In this document: piece after piece, positions 1 to 59,923 of the stretch
Layout of the letters: each line of letters begins with the position of its first letter
Numbering within the stretch: position 1 is the first letter of the stretch
IMG/VR virus record: IMGVR_UViG_3300030110_003594
Span: 55,869 to 119,868 of that record
From: a virus
Strand: one strand, 5' to 3'
DNA length: 64,000 nt
Made by a program: the position numbers and the translations under genes
The notes under the pieces: generated by a model
The model's database searches: none
What the model was told of the DNA's origin: nothing
Seen by the model: only the letters and a program-made list of their open reading frames with translations

Positions 1-2051
1 GCTCCTTTTGTAGGTCTGTATCTTGATTCCTGTATACTATTATATGGTTGTTCAAAATTTAACATCATATTAAGAAGATCTATTCTTTCTTTATATGATA
101 CTTCTAATCCTTTATTTATATCTGGATTTGATTTCAATGCTTCATCTATATTAGCTCTTTTTTGTTCTAGATTACCATAAAGACCTGCTTCTATAACTCT
201 ATTAAAGAAATTATCATAATCATGTGGACTAATATTTTCTGCAATATTCTTTTTCATTTCATCTCTTAGCCAAGCAATCATACTAGGACCACCCATTGCA
301 GGAGTCAATATTTTATTAAGCGGGTGTTTAGGATTAATCGTTTCATTTGCATGATCATGTATTTGCCATACAGGACTTACAACATTTTTAATACCTTCAT
401 ATATTTTTTTAGCGTTTCCTTTTTCTTCTCCTCCTTCTTTCTTTTCAAATACATATCTTCCTTCATCATCTATTGTATAATACATTCTATTATATAATGA
501 TGCTGGTTGTACTCCTAATATATTTTCTTGTGCAAAATCAGAAAGTTTTTCCTTCCAACCTCCTTCATATTGATATGGAGATAAATCCCATTTATCATAG
601 TAACTAATGTATTTACCTTTTTTATCTTCTCCTTGATTTAAAGTAAAGTTACCTAAAACGGAACCATAAAATCCACCAGACTGACCAGTTCCCTCTTCTT
701 CATTTCCAGCTGTTGTTAAAAAAGTTTCAAAATCAGGAAACTCAACCCAGCTATAATTATCCTCTATTTGTTTTTTTGTTTCCTTTTCCCATTTTTTATA
801 ATTACTACTATTTACAAAATCTTTGTGTTCTTGTATATCTTTATAGTATATGTACTTATCTGGCTCATCTTCTGCTTTATATTTTAATGTTGTTGCTTGT
901 TTACCATTCCACATATATGGATCATTCTCTGGATCATTGCTTTTCTTAAGATCAATTAGCCTATAAAAAAGCTCATAATCAAATTCCTCTTCTAAATTTT
1001 CTTCCCAAGCTTTATCTATATCTTCTGGATCACCCCGCTCATCTAACAAATAATCCCTATACCAAATGTCTTTTTCAGTTTTTCCTATCCTATTAATATT
1101 TTCTTCAATTTCCTGTTCAGTGTATGGTGAGGAATAATATATATCTCCTTTGTTATGACCTTGAGTAGGAACGTATGTAGTTTGTTGTGGTATTGAATTA
1201 CCTTCTTGATCAAGACCCATTAACAAATGTAATAAATCTCTTCTTTCACCAGTTGCATCTTCACCTATATCTCCAAAATCATATTTTTTATCTTCTTTGG
1301 TAAAAATAGCATCATAAAGTCTATCATATGCATCTTCATATCCCCATGGATCTATATTATCTGCTATTTTATTTTTTACCCAATCCACACCTTTATCAAC
1401 TAGATAACTAGTAGTAGGCATAAGAGGACCTAGTAAATTTATCATGCCTAATCCATCCTGTGCTTTTGGTAGTGAACCTCCATCTTTAAATCTATGTTGT
1501 AAAGATATTTTAGGTTTAAATTGTAATGGTAGTTTTTGTACATTTTGATTTACAAAATATTCATGAGGATCATTTAAGATTGGTGAACCAATATTTAAAG
1601 CTAGATCTGTATTTCCAAAATTCTGTCTAATACCTAAATCAAACGCACCTTTAAATATAGGATCATTATCCATTGGTAAAATACCAGTTGCATTAAACTG
1701 TGTACCTGTTGGAAAAGTATATCCTGCACCACCTATCAATTGATTTTCTGCAGGATTATGATGTAAGAATGCACCAATATTTTTTCTTTGTCCTGGATCC
1801 CAACTAAAAGTATTTTTTAATGGTATCTCTTTAACTTTTGTTGTACCCATATTATGTATACCAGAATTAGGAGGTAATAATCTACCATTAGCTAATAATG
1901 GAATACTAACATTTGTCATATCTATTTCACCTGTTGGTGTATCAATATCTATGTAAGGTCTACTCTTAAAAGGAGAATCATCCCTATATCCAAACTTTGA
2001 TATAAGTTCATTACTTGAAGGTATTTTATATTTTATTTTTGGTTCACTCAT
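1..2051 (-). CDS. Large virion cargo/ejection-type protein, truncated by window edge (MSEPKIKYKIPSSNELISKFGYRDDSPF...)
   Basis: Not in the ORF track because it has no stop inside the window. ATG at 2049-2051 overlaps the upstream TAA (TAATG). The frame was open wherever I checked. Contains FKDGGSLPKAQDG and KKEGG motifs. Position after the muzzle gene matches crAss cargo proteins. Confidence 0.7.
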   Translation of the reverse strand, partial: MSEPKIKYKIPSSNELISKFGYRDDSPFKSRPYIDIDTPTGEIDMTNVSIPLLANGRLLPPNSGIHNMGTTKVKEIPLKNTFSWDPGQRKNIGAFLHHNPAENQLIGGAGYTFPTGTQFNATGILPMDNDPIFKGAFDLGIRQNFGNTDLALNIGSPILNDPHEYFVNQNVQKLPLQFKPKISLQHRFKDGGSLPKAQDGLGMINLLGPLMPTTSYLVDKGVDWVKNKIADNIDPWGYEDAYDRLYDAIFTKEDKKYDFGDIGEDATGERRDLLHLLMGLDQEGNSIPQQTTYVPTQGHNKGDIYYSSPYTEQEIEENINRIGKTEKDIWYRDYLLDERGDPEDIDKAWEENLEEEFDYELFYRLIDLKKSNDPENDPYMWNGKQATTLKYKAEDEPDKYIYYKDIQEHKDFVNSSNYKKWEKETKKQIEDNYSWVEFPDFETFLTTAGNEEEGTGQSGGFYGSVLGNFTLNQGEDKKGKYISYYDKWDLSPYQYEGGWKEKLSDFAQENILGVQPASLYNRMYYTIDDEGRYVFEKKEGGEEKGNAKKIYEGIKNVVSPVWQIHDHANETINPKHPLNKILTPAMGGPSMIAWLRDEMKKNIAENISPHDYDNFFNRVIEAGLYGNLEQKRANIDEALKSNPDINKGLEVSYKERIDLLNMMLNFEQPYNSIQESRYRPTKG

Positions 2052-5000
2052 TATCTAAAAGATGCATTAATTTTTGTATTAGCTAATTTTAATATCATTT
2101 TTCTATCAGCAGATATATTTTTTCTAAGTATAACTTTATTCCAGTAATGTCTAAATTTCTTACGTTGTAGCTCTGGTTTATTATAATCTAAGTTTGCTTG
2201 ATTTAAATCTTTTATATAACCATTTAATTGTGTTATAAATATTGGCAGATTCCAGTTAGGATCAAACTCACCTCTATCTCTTGTAATATCCCAGAACTGA
2301 TTAAATCTATATTTCTGTTCTACTTTACTATATAGTATTCTTATCTCATTACCTGTAATAAAAGGGAATTGTGTAATTAAAGGTACATTGTTTTTAGGAT
2401 CTAGTGTTAATGCAAGTTCCCCTGATACTTGTTCAGTGTTGTGTATTATTGCATGATCAAAATTCCAATCTAAATCATGGAATCTATCACCACAATTATC
2501 ATCTAAGTTTCCTCTATAGATATAAGATTCTAATTGATACTCTACACTTCTAATTGTATTAACAGTTTGACCTACAGCTTCAACCCATTCTATTTCCCAT
2601 GGATAATTTTCTCCATAATAGTTTGCATATAAATCACATCTATCATTATGTTTCCATATACCACCTTTTGTAAATGTTCCATCTAAACAACATTCATAAT
2701 CATAATGACACATTTTAGGATTAGAGTTAACCCATAAAGGATCTCCAACACCTGTGGTTGTATTATACCATTTTGCTATACCATTCATAATATCTGAAGG
2801 ACATATTCCTGTTGTTGTTACAGGTATTGATGGAAATGGTAATTGAGTTGGATCACATTCACATTCCATTTTTCTACATACACCATTTTTACCCTCAACT
2901 ACACAACTTTCATTTAATCCTAAAACTTGATGAGGAGGTGCTGTACCATCTGTTAATTGAGTTATTCTTTCGTATCCTGCAGGACATGAACATACTGGAG
3001 GTAATGTACATAAATTATTAGCTAATGTAGTTGCAAAATCAGTAACAGTAGCTGGAGTTAAACTTAAGTTTTGATAATTTGTATCACCAGCTGTTACTAT
3101 ATCAAAATCAGCCTGATTAGCAGTTCCAGTTGGATGACAATATAATCCCCAGCTTTCTGAAGAAATAGTTGCTAATCCTGCAGTCTCAGCTGCATTAGCA
3201 TAACCAACATTAAAACCAGGATTATTTGGATTTCCACTTGCATCATTATTAGGAAAGCTTGAAGGCATAGCTCCTTGTAAAGATTGATAATATTGAGAAG
3301 CGTGAGCTCCACCACCATTATCACCACCATCTGCCATTATAATACAAATACGTTTATAAGCTGAATGATCTGTTCTATCTCCTAAAGTAGAATTAAGTAC
3401 ACCAGATAACTGTTGTTGTGCATCATCAAATGCACAAAAGAAACCAGTAGTACCACCATCACCTGGTATATAATCACTTCCCCAAGTTGTTGAAACTGTA
3501 TAATTAGACATATTTACTTCACCCTCAAGTACCCCTCCTGATCCATCTGGAGATGGTGTATGGTTATAATAATCACCACAACTATCCCATGAAGCTAATC
3601 CTATTTGAACATCTCCACTATCCATATCAGTTTTAAATGCCAATACAAAATCATCAACAAAACTTCTAAAATGGTGTAGAAAATCTTCTGTAGAACCTGA
3701 TTTATCAATAGCAAGTACAATATCTAATTGACAATCAAGTTGCTCTATATAAAATTCAACAGGTACTTCATCAACAATTACATCTGCTTCATAACTACCT
3801 TGAAATACTTGACAACATGTTTGTGTTGATGGATTCCAAGTAAAGCCAGGAGGACAATTTGGTTCAGCCTCAAGATCTTCATAACTATTAGTTGTGAAGA
3901 AATGATTTAAACTTGGTATCATTAATTCAGGATGCCAATCGTGGAATGACATCCAAGCTTCATATTTAGGATCATAACTTATTGTCCATGATACATCTTC
4001 AAAATATGTTTCATCTTGTAATGAAACTGGCGTTGTATTATCTAACATTTCAACAGGAGCATATTCTCTACATTCACACATATATTGTCCAGCAGAATTT
4101 GTTATTAAATCACATGTAGGATCTGCACATGAATATGTTGGTGGAGGTGTTACATCATCTATTATTTCAGTTGCTACAGCTATTATATCTGCAACATCTG
4201 CAAAAGCTCCTCCATATGCATTACCAGAATTTGCAAATTCTTCACCATAATTTAAATGTAGATTTGTTGGAGCATTACCACCTGGATCAACAACAACTGA
4301 ATAACTTTTTTGAGCATATGGTGCATTCATATAATCAGGATTATTTAATACATTAGTATTAAACCATGTACATTCATAATCACCTACACTCCAAGTAGTA
4401 GTTGTAGTTGGATCACCTGGCCAAACAACATCAGGAGTTAATGGACTTACACTCATTCCTTTGTATATATCAGTACCTGTAATACCAGCTTCACTATATG
4501 AACTACTTACATAAGATATACCTGGACCTCCGTTTGCTTGTAATATTGAAATACTACCTTCAGCTACTTGACCTCCATCAAATAATGAAATTAAAACTTT
4601 AGGAACTGATCTAGAACCTGTTCCATATAATAAATTTTGTCCATTCCATACTCCTCCTAATATATCTGTTCCATAAGGATTGTCATCACCTTGACCTAAA
4701 CCTGTAGAAGTTGATACTCCTCTATCTGCTGCTATTCCATATGTAGATGTTACATCAGGTTGATAACCTGTATTAGCACCATTCCAATCAAATGTTATTC
4801 CTGGTGTACCAACCCATTGATTAATAAGTGTCATATCACTAGTTAATTCTTGTTGTTCTCCCCAATTCATAAAAGTATCCGGAGAAGAACAATCTGGACA
4901 ATTACCTGGATTGTTACAATCTGCTGATGTTTGACCATGATCTGACATTGGAATATCTGAACATCTACCACCACCAAAATGAGTTAATCCAATTCTAATG

Positions 5001-8000
5001 TTTCCACTTCCTATTTGAGTTGCTAATTGGTCAATCATTACTTTTATAAAATTCTGCATATTACCAATATTATTATTGCTATCTACAGAATTTGATGCAT
5101 CAACTACAAATACAATATCTACTTGACCACCTTCTTGATCTTCTATTGCAGGATATAAATTTATTTTTTCACACTCTTCACCAACAGGATTTCCAGGATT
5201 ATATGTAAATCCATCTGGACAACAAGGAGTTGCAGGAACATTATTACAAGCCGTATTATTATAAACAAATCCTTCACATGGAACAAAATCTATACATTCT
5301 GGTAATATACAATTATAATCTTTTTTACTAAAATATATTAAATCATAATTTGGATCATATACTGATTGACATCCAATTCCTGCAACAGGATTATCTACCC
5401 AGTTATTACAACCTTCCATTCCAGGATATTGGTTTAAAAGAAAAGATGGTAAGTATTTATTAAACCATTGTTTCATTCCTTTATTAGCAATATTTTCTAA
5501 AGATTGTCCATTATATTTAAATACTTTTCCTTGAGCTTGAGATATATAAAATAATCCAGATGGTGTATTAATAACACTTCTTGCACTTTCACATGATCCA
5601 TATTCATATGATATATCTGTATTTACTACATTTTGCATAGGTTGACTAAATAAACCACCATCACCTATTGTAAGTTTAGTTCCTAGATCTGTTTGTAATT
5701 GATCTACTCCTTGCCACATTGCTGGTGCAAGGTTTGGAAATAATATCATTGCACCACTTTTAGATACTGGTTTAATTACATTAACTCTATTTTTAAAGTC
5801 TTTATAATTTAACGGTAAGAACACTCTCCAAAAATCTTTTTTAGCTTCAAGTTGTGCTTGTAATGAATATATAAGTCTTTTAGGATAATGCCTATAACAT
5901 TTTTCTGATACTAATGGATCATAATCTTTTGGTTGAATAAATCCAAAAGATATTAATTGACTAAAAAATCTACCTTTACTTAATGAAGAATCATATTTAT
6001 AAAAATTATCTTTTCTTATAATATCAGCATCAAATAATGCTTCTACATCTGTATACTCTAACCAATCATAATGTCTTTTTTCATCTACATCTTCCCAATC
6101 TCTTAATGCTACATTAATAGTTGATTCAACAAAAAACTCATTAACACCATTACAATGAGTATACATATATCCATTTTTAATATGAAATATAGAACTACTT
6201 CCTGTAGGCATATTAGGTGCAACTTGATTAGGAGCAGCAGTATTAACTGGTCCACTTGCTGTTGCATCTTCATCTTCACTACTTGAAGAACCAGATGAAG
6301 AACCTCCATCATCATCAGCTAAATCACCACCCGGTCTATCTAAAAAATATAAACCGCTAGGCATAGCTCCTGCTAATCCACCAGGAGTTGAACCTGTTAA
6401 AAAACTAAGATTTGTTATTTGTCTTACCATTTCTGATAATTCAAATTTCTTAGTATCCATCCAATAGATAGGACGTGGAACATTAGATCTTAATTTATAA
6501 TCATATGCAAACATATCTGGTTGACCTTTTAGAAAGTCCCAGAAGAATGGCATTATTACTTTTTCTGAATATCTATTTAAATAACAATCTCCTCCATATA
6601 TTGTAGGAGTTGTAAATCTATTAGCATTATTTATTTCACTTCCTGTTAACGGATCTGTTATAATTTCATATGTCCATGGTATAATTTCTCCACTTGAATT
6701 ATATCTTCTTTGATCTTCAAAATATGATATACATCCTGAAGGAACTTGTTTTATTTGATCTAATTGACCATACTGATTTTTAAATGCAACTTTTAATGCA
6801 GTATAATGTGCAGCTATATTTGCTTGTCTATATTGTCCAGGATTCCACCATCCACTAAAGTTACCTATAATAAATTTAGAGTTATCCATTTCTCCAACAG
6901 GTGCTGGAAAATCTGCTTCTCCAGTTGTAATTGTATTTATACAAACTGTCTTAGGTCTTTGTAAATTATTAACTCTTACATTTGCTGTTAAATTTTGCAT
7001 TGATGAACCAACATATCTAGCTTTATTAACTAATTGTCTAAATGGTGACCATCCGTCTCTTTGTTGTGTTGCCCAATATAATCCATGCCCACTATATTTC
7101 CATGCATAATCTTGCATGCTAACTAAATTATATATCATATCTATTACTACTTGTCCACCTTCTGCTGTAAATGACATAAATTGATACAAACCAAATACAA
7201 GTTGTGCTAATGATGGAAGAGCTTCAAATCTAGCTCCTTCAAATTCTACTGATGTATTTGGACCAACATGTCCAGCTGTTGCTGCTGCAGCTGCATTTTC
7301 TTCTGTTGCAAATAAAGGTTCATAGAAAAATCTTTGTGCCATCTTTGGTGCACCTACAACTGTTGATGCACTCAATACACTTTCATTAGCATTCATTCCT
7401 GCAAGTGTAGCTAAATTACCTGTTAACATAAGACCAGCATTAGCTGCTGCTGCAGCAGTAACTGCCCCAAATCCAGGAGCCATACCTGTAAGTGTTGGTT
7501 CAGGAATTTGAATTACTTCATTTGCAGTAACAAGAGTATAAATATATTCTGCTGCAGTTGCAAAAATAACACTACCTTCAAGATATGTTACAGCACCAGT
7601 AATACCTCCAAGATGCGTGTCTAAACTATATGGACCTCCTTCTCGTCCTATTGATAATGATCTTGCTCCATCCATTTTGGTATTACGTTTACCACGCATT
7701 TCTCCAATAGCATAACCAGCACCTACAAATATTGCAATCCACATACATACATTTCTAAGAAGTTTATTTTGTGGATGTTTTTCAGATGGTTTAAATCTAC
7801 CTAAAGAAGTACCTGTAACCATTCCATATGTTTTTAATTCATACGGAGATAAGAAAGGTTTATTAAAGGATGTTTCTGGTGAATGAAAAGTAAATAAATT
7901 TGTTGCTGTATATCCTGCAGAATATGGAGTATCAGCTTGTCTATTACCGTTAGCAACATATGAAAAAGTATTACTACCTGATAAATAAGGATCTGAATTA

Positions 8001-9985
8001 CAATCATTAAAAGGATAATTTGGTATAAATCCTTGTGTTCCTACAGTTTCATGACCTTGTGCGTTAGGAGGTAAATCATATCTTCTCATGTTTCTTGCTA
8101 AACCTTTTGCTATAATAGATTTATTACCTTCTCTTGAGCCAATTAATATTTCATATCCTACTATATTTGGAATAAGATTTCCTGTTGGTCTTCCATCTTC
8201 TGGGCCGCACTCTTCATCTGTTGATGCATTAAATCTTGGCCATGAAATATTCATAAATTTAACACCTAATACATTTATAAATTGATTTGGATTACCATCT
8301 GCATCTCCAGAACTTCTATCAAGATAATGATTATTTGATACTGTAACATCTGAATCTCCATCAATTAATTCTGTCCATGCTGTTGATTCATCAGGAAATT
8401 TATGATGTCTTATTGGTTTACCACAAAGATCATGGTCTGGACTACCTGTGTTTGAATTCCATCTTGTAGGATCTTGAGGGTATCTTTCTGTAGATTCCCA
8501 ATATCCCATATGACCTTCTCTAACAACTATTCCTCCATCTTCTGTTCGTTCAGCATCTTCAATATCAATATTCCAACCATTATCAGCAGTGTTGTGAACT
8601 TCAAATAATCTATCACCTTCATACGGTCCTATTTCACCATTTTGTACCCATGCTGCTGTACCTAAATCATTATTGCCAGGCCAAGGGTCTAATACATTAG
8701 GATTTGCTCCTGCACCATCTTGTATACCTGACCAGTTATAAGGAGCTCTTCCTGGAATATGATATGATGAAGATTTTTCACCTGTATTATAAACAAACCT
8801 AATAAAGAAAGAATAAACTTCATCTCTCATAAATGTAGGTTTATTTCCTCCTTTTGCATAGTAATCAGATGGAAATTGTGTAACAGTCCAATGTGTATGA
8901 ATCTGATTAGCTAAAGGTTGATAATTAAAATCAAATTGTTCAGTTGGACCTTGCCTTACTAAATAATCATTAACAACATACATTTTATCTGTTCTTTCAT
9001 ATGCTGGTGTTGTTATTGGTAATGACTCAACTGGAATTGTTTTTAATTTTTGATTTATATAATCAATATTTATATGTGTTTGTTCTGTACTATAAAAACC
9101 TAATTGTTTTGCTTGCTGTTCACCTTGATTAAAACTACAAACTACCAATTGATAATATTCAAAATTTTTATCTAAATTACTTATATTAACATCTAATCCT
9201 GATAACATGTCTTCATGATCAAATAATGGTTGTACATTTGACATACCATAATAATCACCAACTACTTGATCATTTATAACATATGCAATAAATATTTGAT
9301 ATGATCCATTTCTTAATTGTCCACCATCTGGTGATTTAGATAATTTAATACATGGAATATCAACTAATGGTGCTAATCTTATTCTTTCACAGTCAAGACA
9401 TAATGGTTGTATATCTTCATAAATTACACAATCAGCACCTTCATCTGAAATAACTTTTCTATGCCAAGGTATATTATCTAAATTTAAAGTTCTAGATGGA
9501 TTTACAGCGTCATCCCAATATATCTGCCAAGTACAATCAAAGTTTTCTTTTGCTGCTCCTGTTATTAAATGTTGTGTATTAAAGTTTAAACAAGGTGTAT
9601 ATACTGGAGTTGAATTTGGAAATTGATCTGAACATTGATAACAACTATAATCATTTACCAATGTTTCATATTTACATTCACTATCATCCCATGTACCTAT
9701 TTCACTTTGTTCATTATTAGTTGAAAATAAAACCCATTTATCTCCATATAAATGAATAGCTCCAATAATTGTAAAAGGTGCTGAAGAACATTGTTTATTT
9801 GCTGGTTCATTTCCTAATGTACCTATATCACCATCTTTAGAATTATTAATAGCATTTCTAGCATGAGTCCATTGATCCTTTCCTACTAAACTAGCATTGG
9901 GATCAGTGGTCATCCCTTTAACAAATATATCCGTATCTATATTTGTAGTATTTTGAGGTTGTGGTGTATTCTGCTTTTCAGCCAT
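2051..9985 (-). CDS. Tail muzzle/stabilization protein (crAss muzzle, P22 gp10-like) with two inserted vWA domains
   Basis: 2644 aa. crAss-type segments (FMRDEVYSFFIRF, SWTISYDP, WMSFHDWHP, GIWKHN). MIDAS motifs DASNS and DKSGS. Follows the ring genes. Confidence 0.75.
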   Translation of the reverse strand: MAEKQNTPQPQNTTNIDTDIFVKGMTTDPNASLVGKDQWTHARNAINNSKDGDIGTLGNEPANKQCSSAPFTIIGAIHLYGDKWVLFSTNNEQSEIGTWDDSECKYETLVNDYSCYQCSDQFPNSTPVYTPCLNFNTQHLITGAAKENFDCTWQIYWDDAVNPSRTLNLDNIPWHRKVISDEGADCVIYEDIQPLCLDCERIRLAPLVDIPCIKLSKSPDGGQLRNGSYQIFIAYVINDQVVGDYYGMSNVQPLFDHEDMLSGLDVNISNLDKNFEYYQLVVCSFNQGEQQAKQLGFYSTEQTHINIDYINQKLKTIPVESLPITTPAYERTDKMYVVNDYLVRQGPTEQFDFNYQPLANQIHTHWTVTQFPSDYYAKGGNKPTFMRDEVYSFFIRFVYNTGEKSSSYHIPGRAPYNWSGIQDGAGANPNVLDPWPGNNDLGTAAWVQNGEIGPYEGDRLFEVHNTADNGWNIDIEDAERTEDGGIVVREGHMGYWESTERYPQDPTRWNSNTGSPDHDLCGKPIRHHKFPDESTAWTELIDGDSDVTVSNNHYLDRSSGDADGNPNQFINVLGVKFMNISWPRFNASTDEECGPEDGRPTGNLIPNIVGYEILIGSREGNKSIIAKGLARNMRRYDLPPNAQGHETVGTQGFIPNYPFNDCNSDPYLSGSNTFSYVANGNRQADTPYSAGYTATNLFTFHSPETSFNKPFLSPYELKTYGMVTGTSLGRFKPSEKHPQNKLLRNVCMWIAIFVGAGYAIGEMRGKRNTKMDGARSLSIGREGGPYSLDTHLGGITGAVTYLEGSVIFATAAEYIYTLVTANEVIQIPEPTLTGMAPGFGAVTAAAAANAGLMLTGNLATLAGMNANESVLSASTVVGAPKMAQRFFYEPLFATEENAAAAATAGHVGPNTSVEFEGARFEALPSLAQLVFGLYQFMSFTAEGGQVVIDMIYNLVSMQDYAWKYSGHGLYWATQQRDGWSPFRQLVNKARYVGSSMQNLTANVRVNNLQRPKTVCINTITTGEADFPAPVGEMDNSKFIIGNFSGWWNPGQYRQANIAAHYTALKVAFKNQYGQLDQIKQVPSGCISYFEDQRRYNSSGEIIPWTYEIITDPLTGSEINNANRFTTPTIYGGDCYLNRYSEKVIMPFFWDFLKGQPDMFAYDYKLRSNVPRPIYWMDTKKFELSEMVRQITNLSFLTGSTPGGLAGAMPSGLYFLDRPGGDLADDDGGSSSGSSSSEDEDATASGPVNTAAPNQVAPNMPTGSSSIFHIKNGYMYTHCNGVNEFFVESTINVALRDWEDVDEKRHYDWLEYTDVEALFDADIIRKDNFYKYDSSLSKGRFFSQLISFGFIQPKDYDPLVSEKCYRHYPKRLIYSLQAQLEAKKDFWRVFLPLNYKDFKNRVNVIKPVSKSGAMILFPNLAPAMWQGVDQLQTDLGTKLTIGDGGLFSQPMQNVVNTDISYEYGSCESARSVINTPSGLFYISQAQGKVFKYNGQSLENIANKGMKQWFNKYLPSFLLNQYPGMEGCNNWVDNPVAGIGCQSVYDPNYDLIYFSKKDYNCILPECIDFVPCEGFVYNNTACNNVPATPCCPDGFTYNPGNPVGEECEKINLYPAIEDQEGGQVDIVFVVDASNSVDSNNNIGNMQNFIKVMIDQLATQIGSGNIRIGLTHFGGGRCSDIPMSDHGQTSADCNNPGNCPDCSSPDTFMNWGEQQELTSDMTLINQWVGTPGITFDWNGANTGYQPDVTSTYGIAADRGVSTSTGLGQGDDNPYGTDILGGVWNGQNLLYGTGSRSVPKVLISLFDGGQVAEGSISILQANGGPGISYVSSSYSEAGITGTDIYKGMSVSPLTPDVVWPGDPTTTTTWSVGDYECTWFNTNVLNNPDYMNAPYAQKSYSVVVDPGGNAPTNLHLNYGEEFANSGNAYGGAFADVADIIAVATEIIDDVTPPPTYSCADPTCDLITNSAGQYMCECREYAPVEMLDNTTPVSLQDETYFEDVSWTISYDPKYEAWMSFHDWHPELMIPSLNHFFTTNSYEDLEAEPNCPPGFTWNPSTQTCCQVFQGSYEADVIVDEVPVEFYIEQLDCQLDIVLAIDKSGSTEDFLHHFRSFVDDFVLAFKTDMDSGDVQIGLASWDSCGDYYNHTPSPDGSGGVLEGEVNMSNYTVSTTWGSDYIPGDGGTTGFFCAFDDAQQQLSGVLNSTLGDRTDHSAYKRICIIMADGGDNGGGAHASQYYQSLQGAMPSSFPNNDASGNPNNPGFNVGYANAAETAGLATISSESWGLYCHPTGTANQADFDIVTAGDTNYQNLSLTPATVTDFATTLANNLCTLPPVCSCPAGYERITQLTDGTAPPHQVLGLNESCVVEGKNGVCRKMECECDPTQLPFPSIPVTTTGICPSDIMNGIAKWYNTTTGVGDPLWVNSNPKMCHYDYECCLDGTFTKGGIWKHNDRCDLYANYYGENYPWEIEWVEAVGQTVNTIRSVEYQLESYIYRGNLDDNCGDRFHDLDWNFDHAIIHNTEQVSGELALTLDPKNNVPLITQFPFITGNEIRILYSKVEQKYRFNQFWDITRDRGEFDPNWNLPIFITQLNGYIKDLNQANLDYNKPELQRKKFRHYWNKVILRKNISADRKMILKLANTKINASFR

Positions 9986-52745: not shown

Positions 52746-53723
52746 ATGATAAGTACAAAGAATCTAGAACTTGATGAAAATAATGTTCCTAGTGCTTGGG
52801 TATTCCAATACTATTTAGATCTACCAGAAAGATTAACAGGACAGAATGTTAGAATACATTCTATTTTTAATCCGGGTGAGAGAACACCTAGTATGTGGAT
52901 ATTTGTGGATAATGGAACAAGAGAATATAAATATAAAGATTTTTCTACTGGAAACTACGGTAATAAAATAGATCTTGTAAAAGAGTTGTATAATATAGAC
53001 TTCTCAAAAGCAATATTTAAAATAATAAATGATTACAATAAGTTTACTTTAGAAGAGGGTAAGTATTCTATAGAAGTTAAAAATCATGCTAAGTATAAAG
53101 TAGATTATTGCCATCCACGTGAATGGAATAAACTTGATCAAGTATTTTGGTTAAAGTTTAATATTGGCAAAACTTTGCTTACTAAGTATAATATAAAACC
53201 TTTAGAATACTATAAAATGTCTAAAGAAGATGATGAGGGTCTTAAATCTATTAAGATTACACAACCTAAATTATATGGATATTTTGATAAAGATGATAAT
53301 ATTTATAAAATATATCAACCAAGTCAAAAAAAATATAAATTCATCAAAGTAAAAGCCCATTTACAGGGATTTGATCAGTTACAATATAATCAACCATATC
53401 TTATTATATGTTCATCATTAAAAGATGCAATGTGTTTAAAATCATTTGGATATAATGTTGAGGTTATTGCTCCTGACTCAGAAAATACTGTAATTAAACC
53501 ATATATTATTGAAAATCTTAAGTCTAAATATAAAAAAGTTATAACTTTGTTTGATAATGATGCAGCAGGGGTCAACGCAATATCTAAATATAAACAAATG
53601 TTTAATGTTGATGGTTGTCGTCTAACTTTAAGTAAAGACATATCAGATGCTGTAAGTAATTATGGCTTTGATAAAGTGCATCATAAATTAAAACAATTAT
53701 TAATTGAAACTTTAAGATCATGA
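52746..53723 (+). CDS. DNA primase (Toprim)
   Basis: ERTPSM...YKDFSTG (degenerate zinc-binding domain), SLKDAM, FDNDAAG and KDISD. Likely start MISTK. Confidence 0.8.
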   Translation: MISTKNLELDENNVPSAWVFQYYLDLPERLTGQNVRIHSIFNPGERTPSMWIFVDNGTREYKYKDFSTGNYGNKIDLVKELYNIDFSKAIFKIINDYNKFTLEEGKYSIEVKNHAKYKVDYCHPREWNKLDQVFWLKFNIGKTLLTKYNIKPLEYYKMSKEDDEGLKSIKITQPKLYGYFDKDDNIYKIYQPSQKKYKFIKVKAHLQGFDQLQYNQPYLIICSSLKDAMCLKSFGYNVEVIAPDSENTVIKPYIIENLKSKYKKVITLFDNDAAGVNAISKYKQMFNVDGCRLTLSKDISDAVSNYGFDKVHHKLKQLLIETLRS

Positions 53724-54148
53724 AATGGTGGATACCGGGTAATGTACCCTCAAGTAAAAATGGAAAAAGATGGACAGGTAAATATTTGATTTCAAGTAAG
53801 ACTGTAATGAAATATCGTAAGGATACTACTAAAGTCTACAAGAAGCTTGCTGCTTCTTTTAAAAAAGAATTAGCTAAACATGATTTACCTGTTATAATAT
53901 CTTTTAAATTTTTCAGAGGGAGTAGGCATAAGTTTGATTATATAAACCCTGCACAAACGGTGCAAGATGATATGGTAAAACATGGATGGATTGAAGATGA
54001 TAACATGACATTTATGATACCACATTTTGAACCTTATGAATATAATAAGGAAAAACCAGGTGTAGAAATTAAAATATTAAAAAATGGACAAATTAACAAT
54101 AAAACACAGACTAGAGCTAAGAAAACTAAAAGATCAAAACGTATCTAA
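53720..54148 (+). CDS. RusA-like Holliday junction resolvase
   Basis: VPSSKN, DYIN...VQDDM...WIEDDN. Confidence 0.75.
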   Translation: MKWWIPGNVPSSKNGKRWTGKYLISSKTVMKYRKDTTKVYKKLAASFKKELAKHDLPVIISFKFFRGSRHKFDYINPAQTVQDDMVKHGWIEDDNMTFMIPHFEPYEYNKEKPGVEIKILKNGQINNKTQTRAKKTKRSKRI

Positions 54149-54497
54149 AGTTGAAATATCTTATAGTGGTGGTGGTGATGATGGTTGTATAGATATTTAT
54201 GAAGCATGGACAGTAGATGTTTATGGAAAAGAAAAATATGATAAAGACATAGATCTTACATCTTTTTCTGATGCATTTGATGATTATATATATGAATTAT
54301 TATCTGATACTATTGAGTGGGATTGGGTAAATAATGAAGGTGGTTATGGTATGTTAGAAATTGATGTAGAAAATGGAAAAGCAACTATACATCATAATCA
54401 AAGAGTTATAGAAGAATTTCACTATCATCAAGAAAATCATGAAGCACTAAAAAATCTATCTAAAAACTTAAATCATGGCTCACCCATTACTGCATAG
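54084..54497 (+). CDS. DUF6878-like acidic protein
   Basis: YSGGGDDGCI and WDWVNNEGGYG. Family recalled from memory, not verified. Confidence 0.6.
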   Translation: MDKLTIKHRLELRKLKDQNVSKVEISYSGGGDDGCIDIYEAWTVDVYGKEKYDKDIDLTSFSDAFDDYIYELLSDTIEWDWVNNEGGYGMLEIDVENGKATIHHNQRVIEEFHYHQENHEALKNLSKNLNHGSPITA

Positions 54498-54822
54498 TAA
54501 ATCATCAGTTAGAAAATGGGGAGGTAAAGTTGAAGATTATAATCATATACATGAATGGTTTGATGAGAGTAAAGGTTGGTTAGCAACTATGATGCATAGA
54601 ATGTTTAGACATCACTCTGAAGGTATTTTTGAATGTGAAAAAAGATTTGGTAAAAGCTTTACTAACTCAGACGGTAAAACCGTCTATACAAGATATGTTG
54701 GTGAACAACATGTAAAGGAGGATTGTAATAATTACATACCTACTGCTAAAGAATGGATAGATATAATGTCTAGTAAAAAAATGCCTAAGTGGGCACTTAA
54801 AACAGCAAAAATAAATGATTAA
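54475..54822 (+). CDS. DUF6915-like His-rich protein
   Basis: MAHPLLHSKSSVRKWGG, IHEWFDESK, HRMFRHHSEG and EQHVKED. Confidence 0.7.
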   Translation: MAHPLLHSKSSVRKWGGKVEDYNHIHEWFDESKGWLATMMHRMFRHHSEGIFECEKRFGKSFTNSDGKTVYTRYVGEQHVKEDCNNYIPTAKEWIDIMSSKKMPKWALKTAKIND

Positions 54823-55213
54823 ATTAACATTAAAACTTTATTTAGATAATAAAAAATTATTAGCAGGATCAGAGGAGGACTTAGCAATAGGTGTTTCCAA
54901 TATAATGAATACAGATATTACTGATGTAGGAATAATAGCATTAGCTAAATCTTTAAATGGACGCAATAGATCTATGTTTTTACGTTTAGTAGCAGAACAT
55001 GAATTTGATAATCAAGAGGAAATGATTTCAAGATTAAACAAATTATCAGAAGATTGTAAGCCTTGGATGGAATTATTTAAGAATATTAAAAAGAAATCCA
55101 CTGAAATAGATAAAGAAATAATAGAATATGAAATATCTAATCTTTATTTTAATACTATTACTGAAGGTAAAAAAGGATTTATTAAAAAAATAAACTTAAA
55201 ATTAGCATGGTAA
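54815..55213 (+). CDS. Helical hypothetical protein
   Basis: 132 aa. N-terminal motif is shared with the two genes after the AAA ATPase. Confidence 0.6.
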   Translation: MIKLTLKLYLDNKKLLAGSEEDLAIGVSNIMNTDITDVGIIALAKSLNGRNRSMFLRLVAEHEFDNQEEMISRLNKLSEDCKPWMELFKNIKKKSTEIDKEIIEYEISNLYFNTITEGKKGFIKKINLKLAW

Positions 55214-56367
55214 CAGCAGATAACCTGGCAAAAGCAGGTAAAACATTAATATTAAAGGAGCCCTTCTACGGGCTCTTTTTAATTGGGTTAAATAAAACCT
55301 TTAGAAAAGATATACCTACAGCAGGTGTAAGTAAAAATGGTATAGGAGTACAATTATCAGTAAATCCTGAATTCTTTGATAATTTAAATGAGTTACATAG
55401 AATAGGATTACTTAAACATGAATTACTTCATATATCATTTGGACATTTAGTTCTTAGAGACAGGTTTTCAAATCATAAATTATTTAATATAGCAGCTGAT
55501 CTAGAAATTAATCAATACATATCAGATAGTTATCTTCCTGAAGGTGGTGTAACAATGGAAATGTTTAAAGATTTAAATCTAAATAAAAAAGCAGGTACTA
55601 TATATTATTATGAAAAACTTGAACAAGCTCAAAAAGATGGTAATTGCCCTTCTTTGGAGAGTTTACTCAGTCAAATGGATGGTGATAGTCAATATTGTCA
55701 TAAAACTTGGGAAGAGTTTGATAAATTAACTGAAGCAGATAAAAAACTTATTCAAAAGCAAGTTGAGCATCAGTTAAAAGAAACTGCAGAACAAACTGAA
55801 AAAAGACAAGGTAATGTTCCTGGGGAATTAGCAGAACTTATTAATAGACTTAGAAATATAGAACCTCCATCATTTGATTGGAAAGGTTATCTTAGAAGAT
55901 TTGTTGGGAATTCTAGTGTATCATATACTAAAAAGTTAAGACGTAAGTATAACAAAAGATATGTAGGAAACCCGGGTCTTAAAATAAAGTTTAAAAATAA
56001 TATTCTTGTTGGTGTTGACACAAGTGGATCAGTATCTAACAGTGAATTAAAAGAATTTATGAATGAGTTATGTCATATGCATAAAACTGGTCATAAAATT
56101 ACAGTTGCCCAATGTGACACTCAAATAAATTCTGTAGAAGAATTCAATCCAAAAAAGGATTGGGAGATCAAAGGTAGAGGTGGTACAGACTTTCAACCGG
56201 TTATAGATCTATTTAATAAAAAGAAAGGAGTTTATACAGCTCTTATATACTTAACAGATGGTGAAGCATATACTCCAGAAGACTGTCCAAAAAATACTCT
56301 TTGGGTACACAGTACAAGATGTGAGATAAATGAAGAATTACCAGGACTAAAAATTCAAATAAATTAA
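55207..56367 (+). CDS. HEXXH metallopeptidase-like + vWA protein (DUF2201-type)
   Basis: HELLH, NIAADLEIN, MIDAS VDTSGS, GRGGTDF and LTDG. Confidence 0.9.
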   Translation: MVTADNLAKAGKTLILKEPFYGLFLIGLNKTFRKDIPTAGVSKNGIGVQLSVNPEFFDNLNELHRIGLLKHELLHISFGHLVLRDRFSNHKLFNIAADLEINQYISDSYLPEGGVTMEMFKDLNLNKKAGTIYYYEKLEQAQKDGNCPSLESLLSQMDGDSQYCHKTWEEFDKLTEADKKLIQKQVEHQLKETAEQTEKRQGNVPGELAELINRLRNIEPPSFDWKGYLRRFVGNSSVSYTKKLRRKYNKRYVGNPGLKIKFKNNILVGVDTSGSVSNSELKEFMNELCHMHKTGHKITVAQCDTQINSVEEFNPKKDWEIKGRGGTDFQPVIDLFNKKKGVYTALIYLTDGEAYTPEDCPKNTLWVHSTRCEINEELPGLKIQIN

Positions 56368-56371
56368 AAAA

Positions 56372-57631
56372 ATGGCACAAGTAAATTTAAACATTGATGA
56401 AGTAAAAGATTTTACAAATCACATTATCAAAAATAATAGATTTTTACAAGAAGGTGGTAAAAATCCAGTAGCAGTAGAAATAGTTGGTGAATCAGGTATT
56501 GGTAAAACTTCTGCAGTAATTGACTTAGCTAAAGAAAACAAATTAAATTTTGTTAAGTTAAATTTAGCTCAGATAGAAGAATTAGGAGATTTAGTTGGAT
56601 TTCCTGTGAGACAATTTCAAATGTATAGAGAACAAAAAATCAAAAAGAAAATTGATGATTTAAACTATACAGCAGCACAAAAAGCAGCAGCATCAGCGCA
56701 GTTAAGCAATGTTACCACTAAAAAAGTGGGACAATGGGTTGATGAACTTGCAGTTGAGGAATATCTTAAGCAAGGTTGGAAGATGACCGGTAAGAATAGA
56801 ATGTCTTATTGTGCTCCAGAATGGATCTCAGATAAAAAAGATGGAGGTATCCTACTTCTTGATGACTGGAACCGTGCAGATATGAGATTTATTCAAGCGG
56901 TTATGGAATTAGTGGACAGACAACAATATATTTCTTGGAGTCTTCCAAAAGATTGGCATATAATTTTAACATCTAATCCAGATAATGGTGATTATATGGT
57001 TAATTCAATTGACTCAGCACAAAAAACTAGATATATTACAGCAAATCTAAAGTTTGATGTAAATGTTTGGGCACGTTGGGCAGAGGAAGCAGGAATAGAC
57101 ACTAGATGTATTAACTTCTTATTATTAAACCCGGAATTAGTAACACAGGAGACTAATGCAAGATCTATTACAGCATTCTTTAATGCTATATCTAGTTTTG
57201 AATCTTTTGAGGATAATTTAACTATGATCCAAATGATTGGTGAAGGTAGTGTGGGTGATGAATTTGCATCTATGTTCACTACATTTATTAATAATAAACT
57301 GGACAAACTGGTTACTCCAAAAGATTTATTAACTCATGATAATGAGCAATATATCCTTGGGGAACTTAAAGGTTGTATTGGTGAAGGTGATTCTTATAGA
57401 GCAGACATTGCATCAACATTAGCTACAAGATTAGCAAACTATGCCGTGGTCTACTCAAAAGAGAATACTGTAAATCAAAAAATTACTGATAGATTGATTG
57501 CACTGTGCACTAAAGATTATTTTACTAATGATCTTAAGTATTTAGTTGTACGTACAATCTTTAATGGTAACAAACAAAAGTTTAATAAAATGATGATGAA
57601 TCCGGACATCATTAAAATGACAATTAAATAA
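56372..57631 (+). CDS. MoxR-like AAA+ ATPase
   Basis: GESGIGKT, DLVGFP, LLLDDWNRA, TSNP and IDSAQKTR. Confidence 0.9.
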   Translation: MAQVNLNIDEVKDFTNHIIKNNRFLQEGGKNPVAVEIVGESGIGKTSAVIDLAKENKLNFVKLNLAQIEELGDLVGFPVRQFQMYREQKIKKKIDDLNYTAAQKAAASAQLSNVTTKKVGQWVDELAVEEYLKQGWKMTGKNRMSYCAPEWISDKKDGGILLLDDWNRADMRFIQAVMELVDRQQYISWSLPKDWHIILTSNPDNGDYMVNSIDSAQKTRYITANLKFDVNVWARWAEEAGIDTRCINFLLLNPELVTQETNARSITAFFNAISSFESFEDNLTMIQMIGEGSVGDEFASMFTTFINNKLDKLVTPKDLLTHDNEQYILGELKGCIGEGDSYRADIASTLATRLANYAVVYSKENTVNQKITDRLIALCTKDYFTNDLKYLVVRTIFNGNKQKFNKMMMNPDIIKMTIK

Positions 57632-58686
57632 TGGCAAGCAAATCAATATTTCAAAAATTTAATGATGATGCTATTGCACATTTTGGTATTAGTTGTGATC
57701 CCTATGGGATCATGACTAGTGCTACAAATGGTACAATAGAAACAGTATATTTAGATGAGTCTGACGGTATATATAATAAAATTGAAGATATACTTGAAAG
57801 CTCAAAAACTAAAAATCTATCTTCTTATAAAAAGGCATATTTATTACCTAATTGTAGAGTTTCTGCTGACAGAGTAAAATCTGCATTAAAAGAGCATGGA
57901 GTTGTATTAACCGGTGATTATATGAAAGCTGAAATTTATATAACACATGATTTTATATCTACTCGTAATGAAAATAGTGAAAATATAAGTACTAGATTTT
58001 TATTATGTCAGCTATGGAATTATGAGGCCTTAGAAGATGGTTGTAATTCTATAAATAAATATTGTGAAGACAATATGAGAAACGGTGAAAGAGCTAGAGT
58101 TATCTATGATCCTAAATGTGAAGGTTGGGTTAGTAGATATAATACAGATTTTCATGCAATGCCTTATGAAGGATGGATGATGACCGGTATGGCTGTTAAT
58201 ATTGCACATAGGATTGATACAGGTGAAGCAACTACAATGGATGTTGATGCTGTATTACATAGTAGTGCAAACAAGGTTGAAATTACAAAAGAACTCATAG
58301 AACAATTATCAAATATGATGAATACTTATGATGATGAAAATCTTGAAATGGCAGGAAAAATATTACCAACAATTGATTATACTAAGAAAAAACATTTAAT
58401 GTGGAAACTTGGTCAAGAAATTGGATCTAATATTTATAGAATAAGTCGTAATAAAGATGTGGACTATTGGAAAAAAATTTCTAAAGTAGAAGACTATTAT
58501 CATAAAAGTGCATTAGATATGATCAAGTTTTTAGAACAACGTGATCAATTAGATAAAGAAGCTTTTAAGTATTTAGAACCTACTGTTAGAAAAGAAATAA
58601 GAATAGAAAACAGAGATCTTTATGTATTTAAAGTAGAAGTTAAACCAGAATATAAAAAATATTTAAAAAATGAAAACACTGATTAG
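57631..58686 (+). CDS. Hypothetical protein with BRCT-like segment
   Basis: YLLPNCRVSADRV...LTGDYMKAEIYI. Paralogous to the next gene. Confidence 0.6.
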   Translation: MASKSIFQKFNDDAIAHFGISCDPYGIMTSATNGTIETVYLDESDGIYNKIEDILESSKTKNLSSYKKAYLLPNCRVSADRVKSALKEHGVVLTGDYMKAEIYITHDFISTRNENSENISTRFLLCQLWNYEALEDGCNSINKYCEDNMRNGERARVIYDPKCEGWVSRYNTDFHAMPYEGWMMTGMAVNIAHRIDTGEATTMDVDAVLHSSANKVEITKELIEQLSNMMNTYDDENLEMAGKILPTIDYTKKKHLMWKLGQEIGSNIYRISRNKDVDYWKKISKVEDYYHKSALDMIKFLEQRDQLDKEAFKYLEPTVRKEIRIENRDLYVFKVEVKPEYKKYLKNENTD

Positions 58687-59923
58687 TATAGAATATGATT
58701 ATTTAGACAATGAAATTACAAATCCATCTCTTTCAGATGATTATTTTTCTTTTAAAAAAGCCGGTATATTTGCATATAGCGGAGATTGGAATACACAACA
58801 AATTGAAACAGACAATGTAATTGAAAAAGTATTAAATAATAAATTTGATAAAAACTATTTTACTAATAATGTAAATAGTTTATATAGATTACCAAATCTT
58901 ACATTATCTAGAGATAAAGTTGCAAACTTTAAAGATGAATGTAATTTTAAAGTAACTAGAGATAAAAATAAGGCTGATATTTGTGTAATTGGTAAAAAAA
59001 CTATTACAAAATTAACTGAAAGTACTTATAGAAATCCTATAACACTTAATGAACTTAAAAGGAACGCAGAAAATTTAATTCATAAACATAAGTTAAGACA
59101 AAATGAAATAGATGTTCTTAAAAATCTTATTTTTAATATAAGAAATGAATTTGGTGAAGATGTAATAATTCATAGATTTTCAAACAATTATTGGTATAAC
59201 CATGATTGTGTTGATCCATATACAAAAAAGATAAATAATACTTTAGAACATCTATTTGAATATGATTCATCATCTAATCATAGATCTAGAAATCATCATT
59301 ATACTTATTATGTAAAAAATGAAAATATAGAATTATATAAATGGTTATATGATAATACTGATAAAATGATTTTAGATACTGAACTTAATAAACTTTGTGT
59401 TGAGGATTCAGTAGTTTTATCTAAAGATGAATTTGAAAGATTAACTGATTTAGTTAGATCAACAGATGAAGAGAATGTTAATATAGGACTTACATTAATG
59501 GCTAATTGTAATGTAGAAGAATCTAAAACTTATTTATCATTATTATTTGCTTTTAATTCAGATAATATGAAAGGTAGAAAAGTTTGGAATCATGTTAATT
59601 TCAAATATCTTAGAACTTTATTTAATAAATATATTAATATGAGTTTATCAAATTGGGGTCATGCATATGATAATTTAATAAAATGTATGGTTGAAGACAA
59701 ATGTTTAACATTATGGTCATCTAGATATATTGCAACTAGAATGTTTACAAATGTATTGGAAAATAATTTTGGAATTAAACAAAATGATACAGTATTTACA
59801 ATATCTGTTAATGATCTAAAGTTAAAACCTGAATTTGAAGAACAATTAGTAGGAGAACATGATGATAAATTAAGTGAATTAATAACAGCTGGAGTAAGCC
59901 ATAATGATGATTTACCTTTTTAG
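58670..59923 (+). CDS. Hypothetical protein with BRCT-like segment and SSB-like DDLPF tail
   Basis: YRLPNLTLSRDKV...VTRDKNKADICV. Ends NDDLPF. Confidence 0.6.
   Translation: MKTLISIEYDYLDNEITNPSLSDDYFSFKKAGIFAYSGDWNTQQIETDNVIEKVLNNKFDKNYFTNNVNSLYRLPNLTLSRDKVANFKDECNFKVTRDKNKADICVIGKKTITKLTESTYRNPITLNELKRNAENLIHKHKLRQNEIDVLKNLIFNIRNEFGEDVIIHRFSNNYWYNHDCVDPYTKKINNTLEHLFEYDSSSNHRSRNHHYTYYVKNENIELYKWLYDNTDKMILDTELNKLCVEDSVVLSKDEFERLTDLVRSTDEENVNIGLTLMANCNVEESKTYLSLLFAFNSDNMKGRKVWNHVNFKYLRTLFNKYINMSLSNWGHAYDNLIKCMVEDKCLTLWSSRYIATRMFTNVLENNFGIKQNDTVFTISVNDLKLKPEFEEQLVGEHDDKLSELITAGVSHNDDLPF

Follow-up and report, generated by a model that had tools for sequence, protein, structure and literature searches.

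A conserved five-gene phage module that joins a MoxR-like ATPase and a zincin–vWA protein to three related partners, two of them with predicted BRCT-like domains

Which task might a phage assign to a MoxR-like AAA+ ATPase and a metallopeptidase–von Willebrand factor A (vWA) protein whose genes are packed together with three genes that match no Pfam family? The question is raised by a locus on the plus strand of a 64,000-nucleotide (nt) stretch of viral DNA, here called the window, which represents the last 64 kb of IMG/VR record IMGVR_UViG_3300030110_003594 (119,868 bp; rated complete by CheckV). A first-pass annotation, made from the letters of the window alone, had described seven overlapping or abutting open reading frames (ORFs), here g1 to g7, as one operon. 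All seven were recovered at the same coordinates and in the same order, with overlaps of 1–23 nt or a gap of 4 nt (Table 1). Comparison with relatives reduced the conserved unit to five genes, g3–g4–g5–g6–g7, in which g4 encodes the metallopeptidase–vWA protein, g5 the ATPase, and g3, g6 and g7 the partners, which are related to one another by their sequences.

Linkage was assessed in three sets of loci, namely the best 80 of 395 g5 relatives in IMG/VR (close loci); 11 distant viral loci, some on contigs of 96–128 kb, which bring the viral loci to 91; and 80 loci in genome assemblies of bacteria and archaea, of which five represent the same phage clade binned into metagenome-assembled genomes (MAGs) and 75 hold canonical g4 homologs with 25–41% identity. 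Both g4 and g5 were found in every close locus (80/80). The g6 gene was present in 77 and g7 in 69 of the 80, that is, wherever the contig leaves room for them (77/77 and 69/69). Under a strict rule, an ORF of 95–157 amino acids (aa) abutted the g4 start in 76 of 79 loci, and the remaining three had one nearby; tblastn recognised this ORF as g3 in only 10 of the 80 close loci because g3 evolves fast. The same program detected DUF6878 (g1) in 29 and DUF6915 (g2) in 30 of them. The proposed operon therefore holds for g3–g7, whose accessory genes are strictly linked to the ATPase–vWA pair in relatives, and fails for g1 and g2, which are facultative inserts between the RusA gene and g3, outside the conserved core.

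Conservation falls steeply from the core to the partners. Across the close loci, the median identity to the window proteins was 83% for g5 (range 81–95%), 73% for g4 (69–89%), 43% for g6 and 28% (27.6%) for g7. With respect to the nearest relative (locus L002), g4, g5 and g6 were 89–95% identical and g7 49%, with its divergence clustered in residues 1–60 and 116–235; g7 evolves faster than any other gene of the block. The distant viral loci keep the order g3-like/g4/g5/g6-like/g7-like wherever the DNA reaches: the full set was present in eight of the 11, and the other three (L091, L092 and L093) finish at the contig end or have no DNA on one side. Their g5 proteins were still very similar (E 1e-128 to 1e-194). 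Five of these 11 loci encode a short g6 of 159–169 aa comprising the helical domain only, and one has two helical-domain ORFs upstream of g4.

The relationship between the partners was established by profile comparison, using family alignments A1 (36 sequences), A2 (41 sequences) and A3 (g3; 47 sequences). The first-pass annotation had aligned g6 and g7 in a BRCT-like segment, and BLASTP supported this at E 0.001 (residues 49–104 of g6 with 49–106 of g7). Upon hhalign comparison of the g6 and g7 family alignments, the C-terminal halves matched with E 2.5e-5 and 75% probability. A search of 1.84 billion representative proteins with the A1 profile yielded 268 clusters at E ≤ 0.001, among which 37 more distant proteins of 354–395 aa group together; 31 of these 37 were also matched by the g7 profile (E ≤ 0.001), many of them collinearly from about position 38. 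Therefore, g6 and g7 constitute one superfamily over their whole length and, as judged from sequence, they are paralogs.

The smaller g3 was linked to them through profiles, as pairwise BLASTP of g3 against g6 and g7 did not detect the shared motif. With hhalign, g3 residues 2–44 aligned with g7 residues 248–294 (E 5e-6, 86% probability), exactly at the motif that the first-pass annotation had seen in all three proteins, which upholds that motif as real homology. Against the g6 profile, the match was weak (E 0.0097) but fell at the same place. A hidden Markov model (HMM) of g3 was run on 2,697 ORFs of 92 loci and on reversed sequences as a specificity control. It produced 93 matches, of which 87 were g3-type and six scored best with the g7 or distant-family profile. 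These matches lay in the g7-like helical domain at three of the four distant-family coordinates listed and at one of the two listed for the g7 group, and one of them extends over about 115 profile positions. No match was obtained outside the module among the 2,697 ORFs, nor in the reversed sequences. Because of the profile match to g7 and the confinement of the HMM matches to the module, g3 corresponds to the helical domain at the C-terminus of g6 and g7, encoded on its own. The shared signature runs roughly ML.S.D.EN..LA.E.L.NC(N/D)...S, which, set beside ARM consensus sequences, looks like an ordinary ARM/HEAT-type repeat rather than a special docking peptide. It carries a conserved acidic position: D22 of g3 is invariant in 47 sequences, and D236 and S264 with D266 of g7 are invariant or nearly so.

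Searches for relatives of known function returned little. Neither g7 nor its distant relative P0141 had a tblastn match in 50,697 phage records; profile searches with the g3, g6, g7 and g4 alignments found nothing below E 0.07 among PDB sequences; NCBIfam and PADLOC scans gave no meaningful match; and g3, g6 and g7 lacked Pfam or PADLOC matches, with no search aimed at VMAP.

The AlphaFold2 models of g6 and g7, built on the family alignments, are confident (predicted local distance difference test scores of 89 and 85, respectively). In both, an ARM/HEAT-like helical domain lies behind a BRCT-like one. In g6, a small N-terminal beta region precedes the BRCT-like domain, which spans approximately residues 62–215 (nt 57814–58275) and contains an insertion; in g7, it covers approximately residues 60–247 (nt 58847–59410) with a larger insertion. 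The helical domain follows from about residue 215 to 351 in g6 and from about residue 247 in g7. Foldseek, run separately on the two models, retrieved the PARP1 BRCT domain with a probability of 0.84–0.96 over some 50 columns at 27–30% identity (E 0.2–0.55). Structural alignment with VIA-align, whose own caution line is a Z-score of 8 (about 13 for helical repeats), placed about 22 of the 50 g6 matches listed from the representative PDB on residues ~62–215, with PARP4 at Z 7.1 (77/97 residues) and XRCC1, TopBP1, MDC1, Dbf4 and RFC p140 among the others. In a second search, 38 of the 50 matches listed for g6 fell on residues ~61–215, nearly all of them BRCT domains, with Z 5.0–7.3 over 66–84 residues; these included MCPH1 (Z 7.3), PARP1 (Z 6.2; 76/113 residues, 22% identity) and a bacterial LigA model. 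Residues 60–247 of g7 aligned with BRCT domains at Z 5.6–6.0. The helical domains matched ARM/HEAT solenoids at Z 6–7, with g7 residues 247–324 resembling beta-catenin and AP2 (Z 6.7) and g6 residues 215–292 resembling STAG1 (Z 6.9).

A BRCT-like fold is thus consistently indicated but not proven for g6 and g7, and the ARM/HEAT likeness is weaker still. The predicted fold resembles that of the BRCT domains of PARP1, PARP4, XRCC1, RFC1, LigA, MCPH1 and Dbf4, from which the phage versions differ in the large insertions inside the domain, the lack of a Pfam BRCT match and Z-scores below 8. The first-pass annotation had stated that its reading would fall if the shared structure or the BRCT fold were absent or the genes unlinked; instead, a common helical domain, a BRCT-like predicted fold (Z 5.6–7.3 for the two proteins together) and linked genes were found. 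In a viral structure library, the g6 model retrieved four uncharacterised proteins at a probability of 1.00, one of them from a "CrAss-like virus" and two from a single "Podoviridae sp." genome, which echoes the g6/g7 pair. The ESM Atlas gave no usable match for g7, and for g3 only unnamed or leucine-rich-repeat clusters at 0.84–0.86, under the 0.9 line.

Turning to the core pair, the assignment of g4 as an HExxH/vWA protein was borne out by Pfam, as were those of g1 and g2, in each case above the curated cut-off. Residues 6–253 of g4 match DUF2201_N (76.7 bits, cut-off 23.2; E 3e-21) and residues 267–374 match the vWA-like DUF2201 (62.0 bits, cut-off 26.4; E 7.7e-17), in that N-to-C order. 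Its peptidase and metal-ion-dependent adhesion site (MIDAS) motifs are intact, as judged from alignment A4, in which H71, E72 and H75 of the former and D271, S273, S275, T327 and D351 of the latter are all invariant; over the unique g4 sequences, HExxH (as HELLH or HEILH) and DTSGS each occur in 58/58. The label "HNH endonuclease" attached to phrog_1314 was considered a mislabel for this protein. A tblastn search with g4 retrieved 411 phage records, including those of N4 (gp25), N4-like phages, S-TIM5 and Moorella phage MTATph1, as well as several phages of 287–378 kb such as PA5oct, G17 and CBB.

The g5 ATPase is more divergent. It falls below the Pfam cut-offs for AAA, AAA_3 and AAA_5 (16.1 bits against 22 for AAA_5, and 16.2 against 27 for AAA_3), and N4 gp24 itself likewise lies just short of the cut-off with 20.4 bits. 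BLASTP matched g5 to a Moorella phage ATPase (E 1e-8) and, collinearly, to N4 gp24 (E 0.004). With tblastn, the 50,697 phage records yielded only eight Bacillus jumbo-phage ATPases at about 21% identity, and among PDB sequences only the Walker A region matched, to FtsH or paraplegin (best E 0.0012). In the MoxR/AAA_5-type family, Walker B takes the form hhhhDE followed by xNR(A). The g5 motif reads DD instead of DE in all 61 unique sequences (ILLLDDWNRA, with the NRA part kept) and in the distant loci, whereas the canonical relatives have DE (LFLDELN) in 54/54. The DLVGFP motif is likewise present in 61/61 and is followed by an enlarged region, so that both peculiarities reported by the first-pass annotation are real: 79–88 residues separate DLVGFP from Walker B, against some 30 in N4 gp24, and about 114 separate Walker A from Walker B, against 54–60 in 54 canonical relatives. 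The region consists of a variable Lys/Gln/Ala-rich linker plus a conserved segment and, by our own reading of AAA+ topology, occupies the position of the helix-2 insert in this AAA+ clade; in the distant loci, the linker that follows the DLVGFP-type motif is almost absent in some proteins and reaches about 90 residues in others.

At the canonical loci, a g5 HMM matched the ATPase that lies beside g4 in 56 of 75, which was upstream of g4 in every locus listed. A helical-domain partner beside the canonical homologs was found in none of these bacterial or MAG loci (0/75). Reversed gene order, DD Walker B and partners thus travel together and, from sequence comparison, represent a derived state.

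Table 1. Position of the seven ORFs and of selected motifs in the window
Feature	Position (nt)	Strand	Evidence
g1, DUF6878-family, 137 aa	54084..54497	+	Pfam PF21798, E 3.6e-11, 43.5 bits (cut-off 24.3)
g2, DUF6915-family, 115 aa	54475..54822	+	Pfam PF21866, E 1.3e-39, 134.9 bits (cut-off 27); phrog_8143
g3, stand-alone ARM/HEAT-like helical domain (predicted), 132 aa	54815..55213	+	hhalign vs g7 family
g4, DUF2201_N zincin + DUF2201 vWA, 386 aa	55207..56367	+	Pfam; phrog_1314, 5.2e-65
g4 HELLH zinc-binding motif, residues 71–75	55417..55431	+	H71, E72, H75 invariant in alignment A4
g4 vWA MIDAS motif DTSGS, residues 271–275	56017..56031	+	Invariant in A4
g5, divergent MoxR/AAA_5-like AAA+ ATPase, 419 aa	56372..57631	+	phrog_1297 ("ATPase"), 2e-35
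g5 Walker A GESGIGKT, residues 39–46	56486..56509	+	61/61 unique sequences
g5 enlarged region from DLVGFP to Walker B, residues 79–159	56606..56848	+	Comparison with N4 gp24
g5 Walker B region ILLLDDWNR, residues 160–168 (D164–D165)	56849..56875	+	61/61 unique sequences
g6, N-terminal beta region + BRCT-like + ARM/HEAT-like domains (predicted), 351 aa	57631..58686	+	AlphaFold2
g7, g6 paralog, BRCT-like + ARM/HEAT-like domains (predicted), 417 aa	58670..59923	+	AlphaFold2

Several side observations concern the two core genes. LAGLIDADG-type ORFs interrupt g4 in some relatives (L080, 3763–4599; L089, 1933–2772), and GIY-YIG + NUMOD1 ORFs interrupt g5 in others (L084, 5830–6645; L090, 2802–3566). 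Their Pfam E-values are 1e-9 to 2e-7, and they are probably homing endonucleases carried by introns within the best-conserved pair of genes in the block. A 128-aa ORF without a Pfam match stands between g4 and g5 in about 14 of the 80 close loci (e.g. L020, 5398–5784; L025, 5588–5974). Two contigs from one marine metatranscriptome library are identical to the window at positions 57462–57603 and 57574–57762, the second across the g5/g6 junction. They provide a weak hint of expression, which is compatible with DNA carry-over and was not counted as proof of transcription; parts without coverage carry no information.

Sequence comparison places g4 and g5 in a known family, to which the first-pass annotation, right about the MoxR AAA+/vWA pairing, had not assigned them. 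The best-known member is the gp25/gp24 pair of phage N4, of which g4/g5 is, by sequence, a derived form. The g4 match to gp25 covers 90% of the g4 length at 25% identity, and gp25 has the same two Pfam domains; g5 and gp24 align collinearly from Walker A and the DL.G.P motif to Walker B and an Arg-containing motif; and the two N4 genes are adjacent and on the same strand, like g4 and g5. The differences are that the ATPase gene comes first in N4, MTATph1 and S-TIM5 whereas the order is reversed here, that g5 has DD for DE in Walker B and some 50 extra residues between DLVGFP and Walker B, and that the pairs of those three phages lack g3-, g6- or g7-like neighbours. N4 gp22 gave nothing with the g3 profile and is unrelated to g3, and a 353-aa gene downstream of the MTATph1 pair, considered as a possible g6/g7 relative, proved unrelated as well. 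Both gp24 and gp25 are reported among 17 proteins conserved in Schitoviridae (PMC7650795), and they are listed as of unknown function in PMC2784036 and PMC6992544. The N4 pair is set amid RNA polymerase II and dCTP deaminase genes; that of S-TIM5 adjoins an Hsp20 gene near one annotated "virion structural protein and packaging"; and both are near genes for dCTP deaminase and thymidylate synthase.

Elsewhere, group 2.2 jumbo phages have the same arrangement as g4/g5, with a metallopeptidase fused N-terminally to a vWA domain beside a MoxR-type ATPase, for which a role in virion assembly was proposed by analogy with the MoxR–vWA system of Acidianus two-tailed virus (Iyer et al. 2021, Viruses 13:63, PMC7824862); the passages of that paper covered here mention no BRCT or ARM partners. 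The cellular RavA–ViaA, CbbQ–CbbO and NorQ–NorD systems also pair a MoxR-type AAA+ protein with a MIDAS-bearing vWA protein. Unlike these, g4 includes a zincin peptidase whose HExxH motif is intact, and the pair is phage-encoded and located in a replication module. MoxR–vWA–VMAP conflict systems are described as combining a constant MoxR–vWA core, whose vWA protein often carries fused HEAT or TPR repeats, with variable partners (Kaur et al. 2020, PMC7159879). In contrast to these systems and to the cellular pairs, the repeats are found here on separate proteins, two of which have a BRCT-like domain. In the literature searched, supplements not covered, no paper describes the five-gene arrangement, and none reports an experimental function for the ATPase plus peptidase–vWA pair. 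Accordingly, the pair itself is known, and the BRCT-like/ARM-like paralogs, the reversed order and the DD Walker B appear undescribed in that literature.

What these proteins may do was weighed against their genomic setting. Within the window, the minus strand encodes virion proteins from position 1 to ~39 kb (portal, large terminase, major head protein and a 2,644-aa structural protein), and the plus strand encodes replication proteins from ~40 kb to the window end, including a DnaB-like ATPase, primase, RusA-like resolvase, PD-(D/E)XK nuclease and DNA polymerase. The g3–g7 block is flanked by primase and RusA on one side and by the PD-(D/E)XK nuclease and DNA polymerase on the other.

Starting from the observed gene set and linkage, we favour, with a probability of roughly 40%, the reading that g3, g6 and g7 are dedicated subunits or substrate receptors of an ATPase–vWA–peptidase that acts on DNA-bound or replication-associated targets during the replication phase of infection. 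In such a machine, the MoxR-like g5 and the zincin–vWA g4, with its intact MIDAS, would form the core, and the helical domain would be the common part that joins g3, g6 and g7 to it. The BRCT-like domains, together with the hypervariable parts of g7, would select DNA-bound or replication-associated proteins, which the ATPase would remodel and the peptidase would then cut. Homology, predicted folds and intact catalytic motifs are, like the gene set and its linkage, observations, from which we infer the mutual binding of the g3–g7 proteins, the kind of target and the proteolysis. The proposal of the first-pass annotation that the shared motif docks interchangeable adaptors is conjectural, and so is its suggestion that a machine of this type dismantles host defence or replisome complexes, for which the gene context and the BRCT-like fold are the grounds.

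Several points weigh against this interpretation. The fold matches are middling, with Z-scores of 5.6–7.3 under the caution line, and neither g6 nor g7 had a Pfam BRCT or ARM match at E ≤ 0.1. The g3–g6 profile match reached a probability of only 4%, and ARM/HEAT-type signatures are generic, so that part of the similarity of g3 to g6 and g7 could be convergent. Interaction among the module proteins is neither demonstrated nor predicted; a complex prediction of g4, g3 and Mg scored 0.00 without controls, which speaks neither for nor against binding. Asp in place of the Walker B Glu of g5 may mean weak or no ATP hydrolysis. Finally, gene position in phages is a weak guide to function, and the sole proposal found for the phage pair concerns virion assembly (PMC7824862).

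That proposal, transferred to the present locus, would make the pair a chaperone that folds or assembles structural proteins and a maturation peptidase whose zincin trims them, with the helical proteins as scaffolds. The group 2.2 precedent (PMC7824862) and the S-TIM5 pair, which sits beside the Hsp20 gene and near the packaging-annotated one, are in its favour. The module considered here, however, is in the replication block, on the strand opposite to portal, terminase and major head protein, and the N4 pair keeps company with RNA polymerase II and dCTP deaminase genes. Moreover, BRCT-like domains generally belong with DNA replication and repair proteins, not with virions. Because of these domains and the replication-module position, which argue for a DNA-linked role over virion assembly, we regard an assembly function as unlikely. 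A different division of labour would have g3, g6 and g7 as the substrates of the machine, which would unfold, activate or destroy them, for instance as a timing switch, after the MIDAS has bound the conserved acidic residue of their motif. The metal coordination of MIDAS sites is completed by an acidic residue from the ligand, the site is intact in all 58 g4 sequences, and the acidic motif positions are conserved (D22 of g3; D236 and S264 with D266 of g7), all of which suits this scheme. No interface was obtained, however, and three paralogs kept over a long divergence, one of them diversifying fast, fit receptors better, which leaves a client role quite improbable.

The pair could also insert a cofactor into, or otherwise activate, a phage or host enzyme of replication or nucleotide metabolism, in the manner of CbbQ/CbbO, NorQ/NorD or chelatases, with the helical proteins again as scaffolds. 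Metalloenzyme activation is a common role of MoxR–vWA pairs, and dCTP deaminase and thymidylate synthase genes are near the N4 and S-TIM5 pairs; yet the fused HExxH peptidase, present in 58/58, has no role in such chaperones, and no candidate client enzyme recurs beside the module across the 91 viral loci, so we consider this very unlikely. Equally little credence was given to the five genes being mere neighbours without a common function, held together by the frozen gene order of one phage lineage. It is true that all the five-gene loci come from related phages, that the flanking primase, RusA and PD-(D/E)XK genes are also syntenic and that g5 remains very similar even in the distant loci (E 1e-128 to 1e-194). 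The flanks nevertheless vary, with DUF6878/DUF6915, the 128-aa ORF, homing endonucleases and a spore photoproduct lyase-like gene coming and going, whereas the five genes are adjacent and overlapping throughout, and the domain common to three of them was absent from all other ORFs among the 2,697.

The receptor interpretation can be sharpened into a DNA-directed "segregase-protease", in which a slow, switch-like ATPase (with DD in Walker B) and the vWA–zincin, aimed by diversifying BRCT–ARM receptors, would strip proteins from DNA and cleave them. Nucleoid or defence proteins of the host, or replication complexes that have stalled, would be among its targets, and it would be a functional analogue of Cdc48–Wss1/SPRTN or of the proteasome lid, which combines a vWA receptor, a metalloprotease and solenoid scaffolds. 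In this specific form, the idea is speculative and rather unlikely to hold.

Some features around the block deserve mention. As listed, the DUF6878 gene overlaps the end of the RusA-like gene (53720–54148) by 65 nt, and its true start may be a later codon. Over 194 nt, the g2 gene (54475–54822) is ~70% identical at the nucleotide level to 13 records of Tsamsa-group Bacillus phages, an unusual level of conservation between phages of very different hosts. Downstream, between g7 and the PD-(D/E)XK nuclease, one relative (L019, 9654–10487) has an ORF similar to spore photoproduct lyase (PF20903, E 2.4e-16), a radical-SAM (S-adenosylmethionine) DNA repair enzyme. L023 and L028 have ORFs of similar size (277–281 aa) at the same place, and the Pfam match is known for the L019 copy only. 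A scan for promoters and terminators across the window (G+C content ~29%) detected 77 promoter-like sites where 67.8 ± 8.8 were expected; inside the block, it detected no plus-strand terminator. Such a scan is uninformative in DNA this rich in AT.

With regard to the phage itself, the terminase has its nearest named relatives in crAss-like phages of Bacteroides and Flavobacterium (24–26% identity), because of which the phage is read as a distant marine relative of crAss-like phages. On the minus strand, the 2,644-aa ORF (2051–9985) resembles phrog_37948 (5e-48) and phrog_15100 (5e-35), which are "virion structural proteins" of ~1,800–2,300 aa; since the terminase is crAss-like, the ORF may encode a giant virion protein such as crAss-like phages carry. 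Apart from the likely source study, the clade also occurs in seven studies, in metagenome runs from marine, aquatic and sponge samples. Its contigs found in MAGs (L096–L100, one of 120,283 bp) look like binning artefacts, and a host assignment from the MAG labels of clade contigs (Rickettsiales, Pseudomonadales, Flavobacteriales and Campylobacteraceae) was rejected, as the labels contradict one another.

Taken at its simplest, the ATPase plus peptidase–vWA combination is a core pair of N4-like phages, present in 411 phage records of the collection searched, and an abundant group of uncultured marine phages, with 395 g5 relatives in IMG/VR, carries it in an elaborated form with three dedicated partners. 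If these partners are target receptors, phages would possess a modular, retargetable proteolysis system, and if the segregase-protease reading is true, it would point to a DNA-related role for the gp24/gp25 core genes of N4.

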